Position numbers and translations under genes: made by a program. Positions 5,901 through 60,571 of a DNA stretch of 64,000 bases are shown here, one piece after another. Numbering within the stretch: the first letter of the stretch is position 1; the number at the start of each line of letters is the position of its first letter. The notes beneath the pieces are model-generated. The model had not been told where the DNA came from and did not search any database. It saw only the letters and a program-made list of their open reading frames with translations. Source of the stretch: Leucoraja erinacea (lineage: Eukaryota); assembly GCF_028641065.1 (NCBI RefSeq), contig NC_073402.1:22382001-22446000 (forward strand). The letters are read 5' to 3'.

Positions 5901-8900
5901 TCTGGCCCTCTCACTGTATCAGTGATCGATGATAAATTGAAACAGAAACTGCTGCTGGAATTTGTCTACCTGAGGAACCATGCGCTGCAGCCACTCACCA
6001 CCTTCCTGGATTACATCACGTTAGTAACAAGGACTTTGTACTGATTTATTCCAACACTGAGTTAGGAAAGTGACTGCAAACGTGTGTCTGAAAAAATCGC
6101 ATCTTGTTCATGCAAAAACATATTCATTAGCAAGCAAATAATAAGAGAATAACTGTAAGTGATTGGCATTGAAGTATGATTGGTTAGCACGCAACAAAAG
6201 CTTGTCACTGTATCTCGGTACACATGACAATAAACTAAATGCAAATTCAGTCAATAGCTGGGTTATATTGGGTTGTACTGGACTGCACTGTCTTTGTTTT
6301 GGGCTATATTGGGTATTAACTTACAATGTTAACCTCCCAAAATCCTTGATTCAGAGCTCAACTATTTTTAAATATTATCCTTACTAATTGCTACAGAGGT
6401 CAATGTTACACATGGCCATTGTTTTAAAGGTACAGCTACATGATTGACAATGTTATCCTGCTGATTACGGGCACACTGCGCCAACGTCCCATCTCTGAAC
6501 TCCTCCCTAAATGCCATCCCCTGGGCAGCTTTGAACAGATGGAAGCCGTCCATATTGCCCAGACTCCGGCCGAGCTCTACAATGCTATCCTGGTTGACAC
6601 ACCACTAGGTAAGAGAAGGCTCTGTGTCTGTGAAATAGGCTGCAGGAGTTCAGCCATGTCTCCAATCTTCAACTGACATTTTGTTTTAAATGCAGATGCT
6701 GAAAATCCCAAATAATCTAAAATAAAAACAGAAATTGCAGGAAATACTCAGCAGGTCAGGCAGCAAAGGAGACAGTGTAGAGGGCAAGAATGCTGACAAT
6801 TCAGGTCAGTGACCCTTCATCAGATTTGTTTGGAGGGCATAAGAATTTAAATGGGAAGCAACAATTGACACCATTTGCGGTTAGGAGTAGATCATTAATT
6901 TGTCCATACAAAGCCAATATCTATGAGAATTGAAGAAAGACACAAAGTGCTGGAGTAACTCAGCGGGTCAGGCAGGCGATGTTTCAGGTTGGGACCCTTC
7001 TACAGACTGGGCCATGAAACCTTCCTGATGGAGGATGGAGGTGTAAAGAGGCAAAGGGGGCCTGGAAACCATGGCAGATCCCCAAAGTCCCCAATTCCCT
7101 GAGCTTTCATACATTTATCTCTCCTCCACTTTAAATACTCCCAATGATCTAGCCTTCGCAACACTCTTGGGTAGAAAATTCCAGAGATTCACCACTCTGC
7201 AAAAATAAATTCCAGTGTACCTCAGCATTAAATGACCATTAAATAATGCATTTCGTTGTCTCTGTACTGTACATTAAATGACCAGCTGAGCCCATTATTT
7301 TGAAATTATGAACCCCCCCCCCTCCTTTCCACCCCCCAGCATTTTGAGACTCTCAGTGTGAAAACATCTCAAATGTCTACTTTATCAAGGCCCCTTAGGA
7401 TCTTGTGTTCCAATAAAGCCATCCTTGTTCTTCTAAGCGCAAAATAAAAAAACAGACCCAACCTGTTTAGCATCTCCTGATAAAGTGCTGGAGTAACTCG
7501 ACGGGTCAGGCAGGTGATGTTTCAGTGAGAGAGGTAGACCCAGGACAGAGAGGTCGGATTGGGAATGGGAGGGGGAGTTGAAGTGCTGAGCCACCGGGAG
7601 TTCAGGTAGGTTATTGCAGACCGAGCGGAGGTGTTCGGCGAAACGATCGCCCAACTGCCGCTTAGTCTCCCCGATGTAAATCAGCTGACATCTAGAGCAG
7701 CGGATGCAGTAGATGAGGTTGGAGGAGATACAGGTGAACCTTTGTCGCACCTGGAACGACTGCTTGGGACCTTGAATGGAGTCGAGGGGGGAGGTGAAGG
7801 GACAGGTGTTGCTTTAGACCCAGGACAAGGTGATGTTTCAGGTTGGGACCCTCTCAGCCCAGCAATTATTCAGTTGAATCTTTTTTGGATTGCCTTCTAC
7901 GCTACTATATCACTGCTTTGATAAGGGAACCAAAACTGCGCACAGATTTCCAGATATGACCTAATCGACACCTGCAATATTGTAACAAAATGTCTACACT
8001 CCAAACCCTTTGCAGTAAAGGCTAAACTGCCACCTGCTTCTTGCTGCTTTGTGTGATGTCTCTCTGTACTCTCTCATTTGCACTCTCCCATTTCATTGTA
8101 CGGCGTTTTACTAATTTAAAAGCAATAATGGGAATCAAATATAAATTATATTTGTCAAATCATCCTTAGTCATCAGGAGTTATGGAAAGGGGTACATAAT
8201 TAAAAAGTTGTGTTTCCACTATTAATTCATGCTAATATATTGAATAAATGAAATAGTGAAAGCACGCATTTTCCTTTTGCTGTTCATGTCTTCATGTTTT
8301 CTGTTAGTCTTATTCACACTCTTAAAAATATTCTGTACTCCGTGAAAACACTTCTTATTTGTCATTTGCTAAGAGTAGCTACATTCTCACAGCCTTCAAT
8401 TCAAATGTCTTAACACTTTTCTGCCTAAGCTTATTCACTCGTTGTTCCTTCCAACCGTTTCCTATTTTGCAGCCACAAGTTTGGAACTTATCAGGAGGCT
8501 GAGAGTCTCAGTGGGTCTAGGTCCACACATAAGGCACAGAACCCCCTCACAGTTTGACTGGTCAGTACAAGAAGCCGTCTCTGTACAGCTGATCAATGCA
8601 ATGGACGACTTGTTTTTCCATGTGACTGCTCTGTGTGGGTAATGTCCAGTGTAACTAGTCAGTGCAGGGGGTCGGGACCCTTCTTGTGGCCCCCAGCTTA
8701 TTCTAGCTCTGTCACAGAATACACTTGTCATTAAACCATTTTTCTAGTGGTGTTGGTATGATTACACTGAACATTAATTTTCTGATTTTCATTCCTCAGC
8801 TTCCTTCTTCCAAGACTGCATCTCAGAGAATGACCTGGATGAAGTCAATATTGAAATATTACGAAACAAACTTTACAAGGTAACAGCTGCAGAGTGAGGG

Positions 8901-20208: not shown

Positions 20209-20394
20209 TGTTTAAGAAGGAACTGCAGATGCTGGAAAATCAAAGGTAGACAAAAGTGCTGGAGAAACTCAGCGGGTGCAGCAGCATCTATGGAGCGAAG
20301 GAAATAGGCAACGTTTCGGCACGAAACGTTGCCTATTTCCTTCGCTCCATAGATGCTGCTGCACCCGCTGAGTTTCTCCAGCACTTTTGTCTAC
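20209..20394. repeat. Penelope-derived fold-back element with a perfect 73-bp palindrome and 14-bp TSD
   Basis: Arms 20246-20318 and 20322-20394; GTCCAAT(G/A)TTTTAG at 20195-20208 and 20395-20408. Confidence 0.85.
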
Positions 20395-26058: not shown

Positions 26059-26610
26059 TGCCCTGGTCTTTAACCACTTTGTTTCATGCCGTGTAATATT
26101 AACAGATAGTTGTGACTATGAAACAATACACTATTCTGTCGAGGCATGAAGACGTGTGCTCCAGATATAGCAGTGTGCCTATTCAGGTTACCACAATGGC
26201 ACTGATAATTGCTCATGTATATCCTGACCACAAAAAAAAAGCACCAAATCAGTTTAGCTAAATATGATCAGTCTACTGCTAATCTTCAACCACGGGATGG
26301 AAGATGCTTTCGCTAACTCTGCTATTGAGTGGCCAGTAACCAGCCTGCCAATGCTCCGATTGGGGCTTTGCCAAAACCATTCACTCTGGACCTCTGTAGA
26401 GCCTTTTATCTGAATGTGGGCAAATGAACCGAATGCAATAAATCAGGCAAGAGAAACTGTCTTGACGTCAAGGCAAGGTTTGAATGGACACATTGCCAGT
26501 GAGTCTTGGTGAAATTGGGCATTAAGGGGAATGCTGTCTGTAACTCTTGCCGTTCCTCGCACGGTGGAAGATGTTTGTGGCTCTGGAGATCAGTGTCTCA
26601 ACTCCAGTAT

Positions 26611-26788
26611 AGATAGACACAAAATGCTAGAGTAACTCAGCGGGTCAGGCAGCAAGGAATAGGTGACATTTCAGATCTGACCTTCAGTCTGAAGAAGGGT
26701 TCCGATCCGAGATAACCCGCTGAGTTACTCCAGCATTTTGTGTCTATCTACGGTGTAAACCAGCATCTGCAGTTCCTTCCTACACATA
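26611..26788. repeat. Penelope-derived fold-back element with 13-bp TSD
   Basis: TCAA(C/T)TCCAGTAT at 26598-26610 and 26789-26801. Confidence 0.75.
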
Positions 26789-27075
26789 TCAATTCCAGTA
26801 TGTTGTTCTTCCTCAGGACAGTATCTGCAGCCCTTTTATCATCAGCTGCTTCCTCTATGATTCTTCCATTGTAAGGGGTTGGACACGTAACCCCAGCTAC
26901 AGGAGCCAGTGGGAGGCAGGGATGTTCTGTGGTGACTGATTCACCTCCTTGCCACAAAGCATTTTAACTACAGTACCTACAAGGCACAAGTCAAACAATG
27001 TTTGTCCAACAGTTGCTTCCCAACTGTTATCAAGCAACTGAAGTATCCTATCACCAACTGGAGACCGGTCCTGAC

Positions 27076-27655
27076 CAAAGATTATAGAGCAGAGCAAGAT
27101 GCGCCACTCTGCGAAAAAAGCGTAGTATGACATGACGCCATTTTATTGAGCTACAATTTACAATAATATTAACTAAATATATGAAGTGATAGATGTTATA
27201 TAAAACACTGTTCCCTACAAAACTGATTACACCAAAGATGATAGAGCAGATCAATCTTTGGAACGGATGACACCAAAGATACTAGAGGAGCATTGCCTGC
27301 CCGCTGCCTCGGGAGCGTCGACCGCGGGCAGACGCTTGAGGCTCTCCCGCCGGACAGAGAGACTGGTGCCGGCCGCCTTGATCTGGTATCGGGGGGGCCG
27401 AGAATCAGTCCTGGATCAACTCGGGAGTGGAGGAAACGTCCTCTTCCCCCAAAGATACTAGAGGAGCCTCTAGTATCTTTGCTCTTCCCTGCGACCTGAG
27501 CATAGAGCAGATTGTACAACTGTGGAGTTCGTCCCCGCTACCAAAGATGTCGCGTTTGGCATCAACAAATGGTGGCCGTGACGTTCCGTTACGTACTACA
27601 CGTCAGTCCATTGGATTTCGGAGGAGTGGTCTATCTTGCTCCTCTAGGATCTTTG
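27076..27655. mobile_element. Non-autonomous DNA transposon, probably P-element superfamily, with nested termini
   Basis: 8-bp TSD GTCCTGAC (27068-27075, 27656-27663); imperfect TIRs CAAAGAT-NN-TAGAG-(CA)-GAGCAAGAT; internal TIR copies at 27233, 27274 and 27450-27481. Confidence 0.75.
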
Positions 27656-29640
27656 GTCCTGACCTACCATCTACCTCTTTGGAGACCCTTAGACTATCTT
27701 TAATCAGACTTGAATGAACTTTATCTTGCACTCGTTATCCTGTATCTGTACACTGTGGATGACTTCATTGCAATCGTGTATAGTCTTTCTGTTGACTGGA
27801 TAACAACAATAAATGCTTTTCACTGTACCTCAGTATACGTGACTATAATAAACTAAACTATATAGTCTATATTGTCCTCTTGCCTGGATTTGTGCTGCTC
27901 CAAAAATACTCCGGAAGTTTGTTAGGATCCAGAATGAAGCAGCCTGTTGGAATGGCTGCCTATCTGATAATAATGTTCAAACTCCACCACTGGTGCACTG
28001 TGGCTGTAGTACACAACATTTACAATTATTAAGGACAGCGTCTCTCCAAATCTCTCACCATCCTGATTTTAAAAATGCATTGGTGCTTTTTCATCACGGG
28101 ATCTAAATCTTGGAACTTGTCAAAGGCGATTATAGTCAGGCCCTAGTTTGTCAGCAATGATCTCGTTCCCACACAGTGAATGAAAACAAGGCTATTGTAT
28201 CACACATTTTCACATCATCTGCATTCATCCCCTTTGTTACCTTATCAAAGCAATTAATTATTTAAAAAAACATAAGAGAACTAGGAGTAGGCCCCTCGGC
28301 CCCTTTGTTCCTGCTCTGCCATTCAATAAGGTTACAGCTGATCCTTTAACTTGGTGCCACGTTTCTGTACAACATCCTTGATCATCTTAAAAACGAAAGA
28401 TCTTTGTATCTCTTCCTCGAATACCTTCTGTGATTGAGCCTCCACTGCCTTCCTGGGTAGTGACGTCCAAGGATTGATCACCATCTACCTGAAGAAAGTT
28501 CTCCTTATCACTGTCCTTAATGGCCAAACTCTTAGTTTTGAGGCTGTGATTCCTGAGGCAGGAGAAATGTCAGCTCCATATTTACCTGATCAAGTCCCAT
28601 AATAATTCTGCAACTTCCATTTCTTACACTAAACTGAAAGTATAGGTCCACTCGGCCTAATCAGTTTGATTTGTTTTTTTTTTTATTATTGTCATGTGTA
28701 CCATGGTACGGTAAATCACTTTGTTTTGTTTGTCAGTCAGCTGAAGCAAACCTTACCTTAGTACAACAGATCATGCAAAAGAGAAAATAAACAGGGAAGA
28801 ATATAGTGTTGCAGCTACAGAGAAAGTGCAGATTGAAAAAAGTACAAAGGCCACAAGCGGTAGATTGGAAGATCGGGAAATTATCTCTATCAAATGAGAG
28901 GTTGATTCAAGAGTTTGATAGCAGCAGGGTAGAAGCTGTTCTTGAATTTGATAATATGTGGTTTGAAGCTTTTGTACTTCCTGTCTGATGGGAGCGGGGA
29001 GGAGAAAAGAACAAGGGTGTGAGTGGTTTCTGCAGGCTGCTTTCCCGAGGCAGCATGAAGTCGATGGTAGGGAGGCTGGCGTGCAATGGATTGGACTGTG
29101 TTCATGACTCTCTGCAATTACTTGCGATCATGGGCAGAGCAGTTGCGCATCTGACACAGAAGTGCATCTCTCTGTTCAAGAGTCTGATAATGGTGGGGGT
29201 GGGGAATCTTGAATCTGGTGATACCAGCTTTCAAGCTTTTGTATCCTCTGCCTGATGGGAGAGGGGAGAAGAGAGAGTGACTGAGTGTGAGAGGTCCTTG
29301 ATTCTGTTGGCTGTATATAATGGAGTAATGTTGCATTTCAGTGCTGATTCCATTAGTGCTTTCACTCATGGGAACACCTGCTGAACTTTGAGTGAAGTAC
29401 TGCACAGTGTTCCAGATGTGATTTTACCAGGGCTCTGTACATTTGAGCAAGACTTCTCATCCAGGATCTAAAACCTCATGTTTTAAAAATCAATGCCAAC
29501 GTTTGTCACTAACATGAGTGAGTTCAGCCTCTTGCCATTTCCTAGCCCAAGGTCACTATTCTCCTGAGGCTCTCTACCATGCTCACATGTGCACCCTGTA
29601 CATATCCCCCGAGCTTGCATTTTCTTGTTGCAAAATTGGG

Positions 29641-36328: not shown

Positions 36329-36802
36329 TTTCTTTTTAGCTAACTGCATCCCCTTCAATTCCTACTAGCACATTTATTTGTCAAGCTTGCTCACCGCAGT
36401 TATTGCTTGTGGTTATGAGATGGACATTCGAGCCTTGTAGTTGGTAAAAAGATTCTCTTGGTGGGAAGAGAAGCGATTGCATCTCCTTCAGCTGTAAGGA
36501 ATGTGTTGCCTGACTCCATCTGCTCTGCTTTGACTGTACAGTATCTTATCCAAGGCCATTTAATATTCAAATATATTATCCTAGTCTCACCAACACATAT
36601 GTAGAAAGTTTTCAGAGAATGTTTTCCGAGCATGACCTTCCCATTGCAATCATGCAAACTATATTATCTTTTAAACAATTTTAATGACTGTAAATGTTGG
36701 TGTTTCTGTTCTGGCTCTGTTCCCAGTGATTTGAGAATTGTGCACAATGTAGTTAAGTAACGTTTTTCCTCCTTGTGCCCCACAGATCCTTCAGTCTCAG
36801 CC

Positions 36803-37883
36803 ATGCAAGGCACTCGGCGGAAAGCCACATCGCAGCCAACTGACCGGATTGCGGGAGGGAAGCTGCTAGCTCCCCCTGGTCTTCCGCCCGTCTCCGTGGA
36901 CTCCCTGAGTCTGGAAGTTTACGAAGGGTCGACGCCGGAGCACAGGCGAGCCCAGAGGAAGGAAGGCAAACCGCTGGCGAAAGGTCCCAGCCGCAAAGCG
37001 GATCCCAGAGATTCCAATGGGAACAATTCGGAAAACATCGGGTTCATCCCGGGCTCGGCGGAGAATGCGGACGATTCGGGCTGGTGTGCGTCGTGTGGTT
37101 TGGGAACCTGTGTCACGTGGCAGACCTTCAAAGCAGTCTTCTGCTGCGTGGTGACTTGTGGAGTGTGCAAGGCAGACCCTGGGGGCTATAATCCGTGTAC
37201 CAAGGCCACAGAGTCATCGACAGATGTTAAAGTTACTGAGACTGCCACTTTAAGATATGTTTCAAGCCCAACACATGCCATCACTATGAACTCTGACCTA
37301 AACCCCAAAAAGGCCAACCTTGCAGGCAATAGTTTCAATTATTATGACATCAAGTTGCGTGGGGAAGAGGTGATCTGGGACAAGAGGAGAAGCAGTCAGT
37401 CCACGGACTCGTGTCGCAAGGATCTGCACATCTACAATTCTCAGAAGTCCGAGAGTCCTGGAAGCACATCGCCAAATTCTCACAAGCGCCTTTCTGATGA
37501 GTTCCCCTCCTTCCTAGAGGAGGATCTGGAGAATAATGAACTGAGCGGCTCGATGTCCAGCGCGGAGTTGGATGAGTACATTAACAAGAAGCTGCTGGAA
37601 CTCTTCAGCATTCACCAAATTGACATGTTGGCACAGTGCACGTCTGACACCACCTTCATCAGCAAGAGCAGCGAGATTAGCGAGCTGATCGACAGCATCA
37701 CCAAGGGCTACAAGATCAACGAGAAGGACGCGGAATGCAGGATAGTGACCGGGATCGTCCGGATCAGCACCCGGAAACCCAAGAGAAACAAGCGTAATGC
37801 ACAAGAGCCCAGTGAGGAAAGACTGGTCAGTCTGACCTCGACTGATGCCAAACCTCAAACAGAGACTTTTCTGCCAAGTGATG
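36803..37883 (+). CDS. KDF1: KDF1 large coding exon (exon starts at 36786)
   Basis: Acceptor cccacag ends 36785; gccATG at 36803; donor G|gtgagg at 37884; lies within the 398-aa ORF 36773-37969. Confidence 0.93.
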
Positions 37884-40800
37884 GTGAGGGAACGGCCATT
37901 ACTGGCTGCACGGGGGAGTTGAGGAAATGTTGGGGGTTAGGCGTGGATTGGGAATCGAGGGTTGAGTAGAGGGTTGAGATGCACTGGAGCTGCAGTGAAG
38001 GTTGGGGCTGCACTAGACTTGCCAGAGATGCATTGGAGGTTGTGTCTGTATTGAGGACAAGGACCAAATTGGGTCTTTGATTTGCACGAGTGGTCTGGGC
38101 TGCCTAAATGATCAGGATTGCAGCATGGTTGCATTGGAACTGAATTGATCATTGCAGTGGACATGCAGTGGTGGTCATAAGAGGTACCTTTGGGACAGTG
38201 GAGACTGAATCAGGGGATATATTATAGGCAGCCCCGAGTAACAAGTGGGTCTTTTTTTTTTTTTTTTTCAGTCATCAGTTAGTCGAATTTGTCTGTCAGA
38301 AACATACACAAAATTCCTCTGGTAACCATATCTGCATGATTTATAATGAATGACATCAAAAACATATAAGACTGATAAGGTAATGTTGCTAAAAATATGA
38401 AGAGAGAGGGAATGTAGTTCTGCCATTCGTAAGAATTTGTGTATGTACAGAGCCCTCCATAATGTTTGAGACAAAGACCCACCATTTATTTATTTGCCTC
38501 TGTACTCCACAATTTGAGATTTGTAATAGAAAAAAATCACATGTGGTTAAAGTGCACATTGTCAGATTTTAATAAAGGCCAATTTAATACATTTTGGTTT
38601 CACCATGTAGAAATTACAGCAGTGCTTTTACATGGTCCCCCCCCCCCCCCCCCCCCCCCCCATTTTCAGGGCACCATAATGTTTGGGACACAGCAATGTC
38701 ATGTAAATGAAAGTAGTCATGTTTAGTATTTTGTTGCATATCCTTTGCATGCAATGATTCATGGACATCATCAGTTGTTGCTGGGTGTCTTCTCTGGTGA
38801 TGCTCTGCCAGGCCTGTATTGCAGCCATCTTTAGCTTATGCTTGTTTTGGGGGCTAGACCCCTTCAGTTTTCTCTTTAGCATATAAAAGACATGCTCAAT
38901 AGGGTTCAGATCGGGTGATTGACTTCACCAACAAGAATTGAACATGTTTTAGCTTTGAAAAACTGTTTTGTTGCTTTAGCAGTATGTTTGGAATCATTGT
39001 CTTGCTGTAGAATGGACTGCCGGCCAATGAGCTTTGAGGCATTTGTTTGAACTTGAGCAGTAGGATGTGTCTATACACTTCAGAATTCATTATGCTACTA
39101 CCATCAGCAGTTATACCATCAATGAAGATAAGTGAGCCAGTACTTTCAGCAGCCATACATGCCCAGGCCATAACACCCCCACCATTGTGTTTCACAGATG
39201 AGGTGGTATACTTTGGATCTTGGGCAGTTCCTTCTCTCCTCCATACTTTGCTCTTACAATCACTCTGATATAAGTTAATGTTCATCTCATTTGTCCACAA
39301 CTTTTTCCAGAACTGTGTTTGCTCTTTTAAGTACTTCTTGGCAAACTGTAACCTGGCCATCCTACCTTTGCAGCTAACCAGTGGTTTACATCTTGCTGTG
39401 TAGCCTCTGTATTTCTGTTCATGAAGTCTTCTGCGGACAGTGGTCATTGACAAATCCACTTCTGACTCCTGAAGAGCATTTCTGAACTGTCGGACAGGTG
39501 TTTGGGGATTTTTATTTGTATGACGGACTTGGCAAATGAAAATCCTCGTATGTTGCAAAACATACTTGGCTAATAAAGTATTATTTTGATTGTGATTCCA
39601 ACGGTGATGGAAAGACTGGAGGAAAGACTAGGTACTGAGAGCTCCCTTATACCTGCATTAAAGAGGCATTTAAACTCACCTGAGCAATTACAAACACCTG
39701 TGAAGCCATGTGTCCCAAACATTATGGTGCCATGAAATGGGGGGACTATGTATGAACACTGCTGTAATTTCTATATGGTGAAACCAAAATGTCTAAAAAT
39801 GGCCGTTAATAAAATCTGACAATGTGCACTTTAACCACATGTGATTTTTTTTTTTCTATTACAAATCCCAAATTGTGGAGTACAGAGGCAAATAAATAAA
39901 TGATGGGTCTTTGTCCCAAACATTATGGAGAGCACTGTATGTTGTTGGACATTTGTAACCTGGGGATAGCATGTAACCTTTGGGAGATGCATAGAGTTCA
40001 AGTATGTTAGAGGCTATTGTGATTGCAGAAGTATGACTTGAAACTTTGTTTATGTCTAGATCTCAACTTGGAGATTTCAGTCGTGGATCCGCTGGATTTG
40101 AAGGCAAGGCAATTGCAGGGATTGGCTGCCCCAGGTAATTCCTGAACTCTGTGGTACTGACAGTCAAGTATCTCGAACTTAGAAGTGAACAGTCCCTAGT
40201 CCCTAAGGTAGACAAAAATGCTGGAGAAACTGAGCGGGTGAGGCAACATCTATGGAGCGAAGGAATAGGTGACGTTTCGGGTCGAGACCCTTCTTTAGAC
40301 TGAAGAAGGGTCTCGACCCTAAATGTCACCTATTGAGTCTTAAGAAGGGTCTTGACCCAAAACGTCACCTATTCCTTCGCTCCATAGATGCTGCCTCATC
40401 CGCTGAGTTTCTCCAGCATTTTTATCTACCTTCTATTTTTCCAGCATCTGCACTTCTTTCTTAAACAAACCCTAGTCTCTAACTCGGTGAACTAGACCCG
40501 GTTTGCAGGGTGCGTGGGCCTGAGGACCACAACTGGAACTATGTCCCTGTATATTTGATACGTTTAGTTATTCAGGTCCAGTAACAGCCTCTGAGTTGGA
40601 GGTGGGAATGAGCATGTGTAGACTTGCAGCATGTGTTGATTGCAACATCTGTCCAAACAAATTCAAGTTACTCATGAATGCCTTAAAAAAAAAAAAAAAA
40701 AAGGAAACTGAATAAACTACTCCCAATAAAAACGCTAATTTCATGTAATATGGATACATGAAATCAATCCCAGTACTTGGAAGCAACACGGTCACCACCT

Positions 40801-46309: not shown

Positions 46310-57576
<11,267 letters not shown>

Positions 57577-58176: not shown

Positions 58177-58289
58177 TGCTGTACGCATCTGTCTTGGTAG
58201 CTGGAATCTCAAATTGGATCAAATGCCAGATCCTATAGCCTGGACCAAAGATCCTGCTATAAGATCTTTGGCCTGGACCGTGTGATGAG

Positions 58290-58470: not shown

Positions 58471-60571
58471 GACAATGCTTTGTTCGACTGATGCAGAACA
58501 CACTCACTGGCTTGGTACCAAAGCTCAGAGTATATAACTAGCAGAGAAAATTAGATAGGCAGAGTTTGTAATCATTTGGGAATAAAAAGGAGACCTGTGA
58601 AGGTTTCTGATATACACAAATGCCGGAGTAACTTTCTGATGGGGTTACTTGGGGGAATTCAGAGCAGGTGTGTTTTCAAATTTAATTGCAAGTGGACGTT
58701 GAATTAAAAGTTGAAAACGTTGGAAAAACTCGGCAAGCCAATCAGCATTTTGTGGAAGGTGAAACAGTTAACATTTCGGGTAAGAACTGAGGGAGAATGA
58801 CCTACTGAAAAATGAAACAAACACGGCCAGTGGTTCCTGGAAAGGGGATCTATCCAGACTCAAAATTGGTCAAAGATGAGGTAATTTTCAGTAGGAGAGA
58901 AGGTGGTGGTGGAGGAATGTGTAGAGCAAATACAACCTTCACATTGAATCTGGGATTCAAGAACTAATCAAAGATGAAGCTCACATGGAAGAAGTGATGG
59001 ATGAAAACACATGGATGGTAGTTAAACAAATGCAAGGAATGGGAGGGAATCCATCTGCACAGGAGGGCGGAGAGTTGATTTAGTCACGCACTGGGGACTA
59101 GACAGGGAAAGGATCCATCAACAAGTTGTCTGGAGAAGAATGTTGGCAATAAGATGAATTGGAATGGCTCATTTGGGACAGTTAATAACACTTTTTTCCC
59201 CTTATCCTGCACACATCTAACCTGTCAGACAAGTCCCACCACATTACTATTGATAAGACAGGCTTAATGGATCTGTTCCTACCAGGAACTAAAGGTGCTG
59301 GTTTACAAAAATTGACACAGTGTGCCGAAGTAACTCAGTAGGTCAGGCAGCATCTCTGGAGAACATGGATAGGTTCTGACTGAAACATCACCTATCCCAT
59401 GCTGTCCAGAGATGCTGCCTGACTTGCTGAGTTACTCCAGCACTTTGTGTCTCTGTCTGTACAAGGATGCATTCACATACAAATTGACGGGTCAAATAAT
59501 TGACATGAGTCAAATGGGAATGAGATTAAAAGGTTTGAAGAAATTATTCTACATGATTGTGCCAGAATGAACAGCAGAAAGCTAGCAATCTTCAAAAGCG
59601 TCACACCGCAATGGATGTTTCAATGTTTTCTTGCACATCCTTGGAAGTCATGCAGATGGGATAGATCTGAAGGATCCCATGGCATAATTTGAAGAAGAGG
59701 GAGTGGTTTCTCCCTGACAATTTATTTCCAAAATCAAAATCACTTAAACAGATTTGCAGAACACCTTTCATTATACAAGCACAATTCTAAGCTTCCAGTT
59801 GCCTATCACTTTAATTCTCTGTCCTATTCCCACTCCAACCACTCTGCTTTCAGCCTTTTCACTGGTCCAACAACACTCAGCATTAGCTAGAGGAACATGT
59901 CGTAAGCATCGGGAGCTGACCAGGTTGGTGACTGACTCCGAACTACAGCAATAGCAGCTTCGTCCGCCCCGAATCGTGGGGCTTCAATCGGCCCGTTCGC
60001 TGGACTTTCATCGCCCAGCGCGGCTTAAAATCGGCCGGCAGGGGCTTCAACATCGGGAGCCTCGATCGCCTCGCAATTTGACCGCGGTTGGTGGAAGATC
60101 CCGCGGCCGATTTTAAGCCGCTCCGGGCGACGAAAGGCCCCGCGAACGGGCCGATTCAAGCTCCGCTCTATGATCTTTGCTCCGCCAGGACGTCTCCCTC
60201 CTCCAATCACCGCGCTCTATCCTCAGTCCCACCCGCCTACTTCCGTCTCTGACCGACACCTCCCTCCACCAATCATTGCGCTGAATCATCATATCCCACC
60301 CCCCCACCCCCATTGCCCGCTGACCGACGTCTCTCTCGTCCAGTCGGCACCCTCGATCATCAGTCCCATCCCCACTGTCTCATGGAAAGCGGAGATTATT
60401 AATAGATTTTATTTTTCGCTGAATTTCAAAATCCGGATTACAAAACATAGGGGGGATTGTCCCCCCACCTCTCAAAGCATGGAGGGGAGGTGTGTCCCCC
60501 CCCCTTGATTTCCGCCTATGCCTGGATAAGCTGGGAAACATTGTGAGTCATGTTTTTTTTAAACTTCTACA

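Follow-up and report, generated by a model that had tools for sequence, protein, structure and literature searches.

Genes and features of the locus

The window (the whole 64,000-nucleotide stretch of DNA analysed here) carries the large coding exon of KDF1 at 36761-37969 (+; DUF4656, E 5e-86), a separate Tc1-like element marked by a 243-aa frame with a Tc1/Tc3-type transposase HTH at 38896-39627 (-), and a composite non-autonomous TIR element (MITE) of 580 bp at 27076..27655 (+), which encloses the palindrome that is the main subject of this study. The MITE has imperfect TIRs and subterminal inverted repeats (27092-27109 and 27624-27641), is bounded by a perfect pair of 8-bp TSDs, GTCCTGAC (27068..27075 and 27656..27663, both +), and gives no Pfam match in its two frames of at least 100 aa. 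It inserted into a high-copy repeat at 27002..27067 (+) that resumes from 27664, is recognised by depth, loose ends and joints, and which we take to be a LINE-like 3' region. Inside the MITE, an inner left TIR at 27274..27291 (+) opens a GC-rich nested segment; another CAAAGAT at 27542-27548, where the high-copy right half of the sequence starts, could represent a nested end that has degenerated. The 55 frames of at least 100 aa in the window include no P or hAT transposase; their notable matches are the Tc1-type HTH, KDF1 (DUF4656) and a weak GIY-YIG match, with no others. KDF1 marks the host as a chordate, and the character of its SINE and LINE repeats would point to an elasmobranch.

A palindrome of two fused element ends

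Two perfect 15-bp inverted arms (27450-27464 and 27467-27481) around a central AG form a 32-bp palindrome at 27450..27481 (no strand assigned), in which two element ends stand fused head to head. The TIR-only palindrome of 32 bp that the original prediction placed within 27441..27489 is therefore real: it is one of five perfect hairpins in the window with arms of at least 11 and loops of at most 12, and in 40 order-1 Markov sequences the longest arms ranged from 9 to 14, none reaching 15. The motif CAAAGATNNTAGAG, allowing up to one mismatch, has 10 matches in the window against 0.41 expected. The first 18 nt of the palindrome (27450-27467) are identical to the inner left TIR at 27274-27291, where identity over 17 nt had been claimed. 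Because the C at 27467 can be assigned to either end, a 17+15 build is indistinguishable from 18+14 and fits no better than 18+15 overlapping by 1 nt; of the 17+15 build proposed earlier, the two fused ends stand and the unique parse does not.

On the left the palindrome is flanked by CTCTTCCC plus one C (27441..27449, +), probably an old TSD of 8 or 9 bp, and on the right by CTCTTCCC(T) (27482..27490, +). The two CTCTTCCC copies (27441-27448 and 27482-27489) lie one base out of register, and the abutting 8-mers match at only four of eight positions, so that the near-perfect 8-bp direct repeats described originally, with their extra C, are present as copies and fail in register. Reading them as a TSD requires either a 1-bp slip (8 bp) or a length of 9 bp with one C>T before G, two solutions of equal fit; the 9-bp reading matches at 8/9 positions in the window copy. 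Most other copies of the family carry T at 27484, which makes their flank repeat poorer than that of the window copy.

The palindrome is an inherited part of the MITE family

Contig sets X1, X16 and X3 (organisms A, D and B) were aligned to 26950-27720, with 6235-6735 pieces each. Depth, which does not equal copy number, was 26-60 over the unique flank and at least 1378 in every bin inside the 580-bp element; at 27484, in the palindrome's right flank, it reached 2471, 8626 and 30516 in the three sets. Three of the best 15 of 88 joints skip 588 bases (580 plus the 8-bp TSD, with 7-10 shared letters), and these empty paralogous sites confirm the outer boundaries of the element. The centre of the palindrome is bridged, with at least 31 letters on each side, by 5 of the 24 listed pieces (X1 record 4, X16 records 13 and 14, X3 records 19 and 20), which differ at 6-14 letters over 98-164 (6-10% diverged), compared with 0-3 over 123-149 in orthologous flank pieces. 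Records 14 and 19 are gap-free, which makes the 32-bp form and the extra C traits of the family; and since the diverged bridging pieces include both flanks, the palindrome was inherited along with the MITE. The palindrome with both its flanks is thus an inherited internal part of the MITE family, and no scar was made at the 27450 locus itself: the claim of an excision recorded there falls to the diverged paralogues, which share palindrome and flanks in three related organisms.

Among the best 15 of the 88 joints there was neither a palindrome-less copy nor a full element in the palindrome's place. In 3, 3 and 11 contigs of the three sets (depth 89, 4280 and 12494) an added CT behind 27466 produces a perfect 34-bp palindrome; these contigs are either family copies or independent sites, and their form may be 17+17, as from a 17-nt stagger, or equally 18+18 over a 2-nt GC overlap. 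A joint from 27095 to 27475, present in a single contig of X1 and a single contig of X3, would hint that the lineage of the window has a left side of 20 nt, its own side of 22-23 letters being too short to trust.

A family-wide palindrome might also be a structural part of the MITE, in which rearrangement or local hopping brought a left TIR next to a right one, with the flanking repeat a chance likeness in a C/T-rich tract and the true footprints lying elsewhere. The multi-copy state with flanks, the T at 27484 in the majority, the extra C common to the copies, the lack of an empty form among those 15 joints and the 4/8 match of the in-register flanks would all agree with such an origin. The same build is found, however, in units with perfect TSDs (58246-58270 and the 32- and 34-bp metagenome units described below), and a 9-bp TSD fits eight of nine letters at the palindrome, TSDs of 8-9 bp being on record for P relatives (excerpts of PMC3698922) and present at the metagenome sites L016 and L116; we hold the structural origin to be very improbable.

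Other TIR-only units in the window

A second TIR-only unit lies inside the 580-bp element at 27233..27265 (+), consisting of 28 bp (27233-27260), built from 17-18 nt of one end and about 10 nt of the opposite end, followed by 5 more bases. Its abutting 8-mers match at 3/8, the duplication is found 5 bp further out (27225-27232 and 27266-27273), and the T that most copies have at 27269 makes the 8-mers around the unit identical. A 28-bp unit keeping 17 nt of a left TIR variant had been described here: the unit exists and its 17-18 nt hold, with a duplication that stands away from its edges. The insert is absent in one X16 contig and three contigs run on as longer TIR-led sequence, a set of few contigs that hints at empty, long and reduced states of the site.

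The cleanest TIR-only example of the window, absent from the original prediction, is a 25-bp unit at 58246..58270 (-), an independent unit of 16-17 nt plus 8-9 nt between perfect 8-bp TSDs, GCCTGGAC (58238-58245 and 58271-58278). The long side ends at 17-18 nt in all three window units. Directly past the TSD of the 25-bp unit, at 58227-58237 (-), about 11 nt repeat part of the right TIR, possibly as an older decayed end that received the insertion, or through templated repair. A lone TIR of the same family at 60160..60179 (-), for which no partner end was found, heads a GC-rich, internally inverted segment reaching to about 59978. Upstream of a CpG-island exon at 57495-57576 (-), the translation of which presumably resembles the start of NUDC, come the 25-bp unit, at a distance of about 660 bp, and the lone TIR at 60179, at about 2.6 kb.

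TIR-only units in metagenome contigs

Metagenome contigs were scanned for two such ends 0-12 nt apart, each side having 14 nt or more and the whole unit no more than 40, a pattern that is blind to 22+22 products and longer. The scan yielded at least 120 loci with 26 assembly prefixes, and removal of 22 duplicates by flank similarity (3 of them with a different unit sequence) left at least 98 distinct sites. Among the 98 sites listed there are 78 distinct unit sequences; 53 have a perfect 7-bp TSD, 13 a 7-bp TSD with one mismatch, one each a TSD of 8, 9 and 6 bp, and 29 none, the mean under shuffled flank pairing (the control for perfect TSDs at these sites) being 0.6. Two TIR ends fully explain 75/98 listed units, with an overlap of 2 nt in 32/98 and of 1 nt in 20/98; the same junction type occurs in different TIR subfamilies, and some of the units listed have unlike arms. 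The metagenome DNA is non-coding, its longest stop-free frames having a median of 81 aa, and since its likeness to the 580-bp element is limited to the TIR units, it would come from another, eukaryote-like source.

The original prediction had staked itself against a palindrome that is a fixed internal part of the enclosing element and never occurs independently with varied TSDs. The first half of that description is what we found in three organisms; the second is contradicted by the unit at 58246-58270 and the at least 98 distinct metagenome sites, which are independent TIR-only units with varied TSDs.

Units of 25-40 bp with TSDs could themselves be mobile, as micro-MITEs moved in trans and making their own duplications. 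One 37-bp unit does occur at six or more distinct sites and two others at four or more each, and the 34-bp form has high depth in X16 and X3. Mobility of this kind predicts few unit sequences, against the 78 distinct ones at the 98 listed sites; the shared junction across subfamilies and the unlike arms of some units look instead like separate repair of unequal-ended elements, and the units are without the subterminal inverted repeats that are kept at both ends of the 580-bp element. That the units moved on their own thus appears quite improbable, and we continue to read them as scars of excision.

TSD length seems to differ by subfamily. The CAAAGATCCTATAG-type units at L016 and L116 have TSDs of 8 and 9 bp, compared with 7 bp in most others. 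Five 38-bp units (L009, L061, L084, L088 and L100) with common flanks, small sequence variants and no TSD are possibly a second instance of a scar that travels with a repeat, or else allelic versions of a single site. Another TIR-only unit, at L060:143-173 and about 230 bp away from the first one there, has a 7-bp duplication whose copies nearly match. Viral contigs gave no palindromic unit; five single-motif matches in them, with no second end of the same form, were treated as chance, and four matches in prokaryote genomes, hairpins without direct-repeat flanks, as unrelated.

Depth of the cut

Footprints of P elements are known from flies, in which repaired donor sites keep 15-17 nt. Among the metagenome matches listed, more than 17 nt of one end are needed in 47 of the 75 decomposable units and at least 21 in 31, figures whose upper limit is circular in that the 23-nt references were derived from units. 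Counted without references in the 85 non-palindromic units listed (13 perfect palindromes are left out, and 5 of 98 rows are mis-measured, with a long side of 8 or 12), the long side is 22 nt in 27 units, 21 in 12, 23 in 6 and 24-26 in 5, under a pattern that allowed 26; across subfamilies, the long sides of the matches listed often end in AG. Because end joining free of synthesis keeps no more TIR than the overhang held, the simplest reading is that the metagenome lineage has a stagger of about 22-23 nt, which would be deeper than the 17 nt of Drosophila. For the window family the depth would be at least 17-18 nt, its units being compatible with 17 or with trimming of a longer tail. The 17-nt signature put forward originally accordingly finds no confirmation, with window units that fit 17 or at least 18 and 47/75 listed metagenome units that need more; the measurements suggest a cut further inside the element ends than that of the fly P element. 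The idea of a cut immediately ahead of the TIR's internal AAGAT repeat was considered and rejected, as the ends at 27274 and 60179 lack AAGAT.

Unit lengths would be uninformative on cleavage if the units had arisen from ordinary TIR elements (hAT, MULE or P) by extreme internal deletion, through gap repair that was aborted or slippage driven by hairpins. Excerpts of PMC3814204 document that Tc1/mariner MITEs are miniaturised through microhomology and that gap repair can abort in Ac, P, Tc1 and Mutator, and aborted SDSA followed by end joining is known after P excision (PMC8951532, likewise in part); in addition, most junctions among the listed matches have 1-2 nt of microhomology, and the window TSDs are 8 bp long, like those of hAT. 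Aborted gap repair predicts no sharp peak, whereas the long side of the listed matches peaks at 21-22 nt in several subfamilies and seldom exceeds 23 though 26 was allowed, and all three window units end at much the same point (17-18 nt) on that side. The listed relatives, moreover, have 7-bp TSDs and a Galileo-like motif. We judge this origin of the units unlikely, and cleavage followed by end joining is retained as the preferred one.

Probable affinity to the P superfamily

Published excerpts give TSDs within the P superfamily as 7 bp in Galileo/1360, 8 bp in P and 8-9 bp in BuT5 (PMC3698922), a target preference of GTANTAC for Galileo (PMC4168063) and the target motif GTCCGGAC for Drosophila P (PMC2577343). 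TSDs in this range of 7-9 bp are what we observe: 8 bp at the 580-bp element and at 58246-58270, and 7 bp at 53/98 listed metagenome sites, while the 8-bp length typical of hAT, present in the window, occurs in 1/98 of the listed relatives. The 53 perfect 7-bp TSDs of the listed sites score 2.85/6 against GTANTAC, versus a background of 1.57 (0 of 5000 resamples reach 2.85). The two perfect TSDs of the window match GTCCGGAC at 7/8 positions (GTCCTGAC, at the 580-bp element; 0.014% of window 8-mers) and 6/8 (GCCTGGAC, at 58246-58270; 0.2%). The palindrome's own TSD fits P poorly (3/8 to GTCCGGAC, 5/8 to GGCCAGAC), and the flank of the 27233 unit matches the P motif at 3/8. Target motifs separate P from hAT in part, the hAT motifs GTGNNCAC and GTTTAAAC likewise starting with GT and ending with AC.

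Excision of Drosophila P leaves 17-nt 3' overhangs (PMC7776569, PMC10983969 and PMC8951532, each in part), as the original prediction had it for the stagger of P transposase, whereas hAT and MULE elements cleave via hairpins on flanking DNA. The prediction's remark that hAT excision leaves no TIR remnants of this kind agrees with those flank hairpins (PMC5499845). The units found here consist of TIR sequence with an intact TSD on either side, and not of the flank-sequence footprints of hAT; their side length is peaked (counted among the listed matches of a length-limited pattern), which fits long staggered donor cleavage indirectly. Given this difference in cleavage, the TIR family would appear to work like P, and we regard it as a candidate member of the P superfamily, no THAP-domain, GTP-binding DDE transposase being present in the 55 window frames. 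Of the P-type cleavage chemistry proposed earlier, the TSD lengths and target motifs are indeed P-superfamily-like; the 17-nt signature goes beyond what the units show, and the 55 frames include no transposase.

Known systems resemble the window to differing degrees, as far as excerpts of the papers go. Drosophila melanogaster P shares the 8-bp TSD, a target near the same motif, CA...TG ends and TIR sequence left between TSDs after excision (PMC7776569, PMC8951532, PMC2577343); it differs in its unrelated TIR and in a 17-nt cut, where the window units retain 17-18 nt or more and the listed relatives as much as 22-23 nt. Galileo/1360 and BuT5 of the repleta-group P elements share with the metagenome units the 7-bp TSD and GTANTAC-like preference, and also include 8-9-bp TSDs (BuT5) and non-autonomous MITEs, whereas Galileo has very long foldback TIRs (PMC4168063, PMC3698922). 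Zebrafish Pdre/zfTHAP9 is a vertebrate P-like system with short TIRs, subterminal inverted repeats and 8-bp TSDs, but its TIRs are 13 bp long and its excision in cell assays produced flank deletions (PMC10983969). The hAT and MULE elements have 8-bp (hAT) or long TSDs and non-autonomous MITEs, and differ in that long TIR pieces are not expected at donor sites end-joined after hairpin formation on flank DNA (PMC5499845). In the literature found, cut depth was given for Drosophila P transposase only (17 nt), and no description of a TIR-only scar population turned up for Galileo/1360/BuT5; of the 12 papers that contain one of six 14-mers of the TIR motifs, none deals with transposons, judged by title and abstract. 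The search likewise returned no literature on P-like elements or footprints in cartilaginous fishes, subscription papers being mostly outside its range, and the family may be named in repeat databases.

Origin of the palindrome

The palindrome is most likely an old excision scar of a P-element-like cut-and-paste transposon that was later copied within a larger repeat. More specifically, we assign a probability of roughly 65% to its being the repaired donor site of a P-superfamily-like lineage with ends starting CAAAGATNNTA(G/T)AG. The transposase would cut one strand at the tip of the element and the other well inside the TIR, leaving a long 3' single-stranded TIR tail on each flank; both tails would then be fused between the two TSD copies by end joining that relies mostly on microhomologies of 1-2 nt. 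Such a scar may have arisen once, in an ancestral copy of the 580-bp MITE, and then multiplied passively with it.

A wider reading, which we advance tentatively and would not expect to hold in full, is that a P-superfamily-like lineage with a conserved 23-nt end occurs both in a chordate resembling cartilaginous fishes and in a eukaryote unrelated to it, perhaps through horizontal transfer. It would have a stagger of about 22-23 nt and TSDs of 7, 8 or 9 bp, and its germ-line scars would litter genomes and could become fixed parts of MITEs, the geometry of cleavage remaining readable from sequence.

Taken alone, the single palindrome is a modest fossil. If TIR-only scars do record cut depth, sequence alone could classify orphan MITE families as P-type and measure variation in stagger (about 22-23 nt in one lineage), and the depth so obtained would translate directly into predictions for biochemical work and for the P transpososome with its unusual looped DNA. 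The excision reading, if true, would further imply past germ-line P-like activity in a vertebrate lineage beyond zebrafish, and the persistence of scars inside MITE consensus sequences.

Other features of the window

The weak GIY-YIG match, at 7433-7813 (-) and just below the Pfam cut-off, is perhaps a Penelope-like remnant. An assembly gap of 199 N occupies 2298-2496. At 20246-20394 there is a perfect 73-bp inverted repeat with a 3-nt loop in SINE-like sequence, and similar foldback pairs occur at 26610-26750 and 40279-40319.
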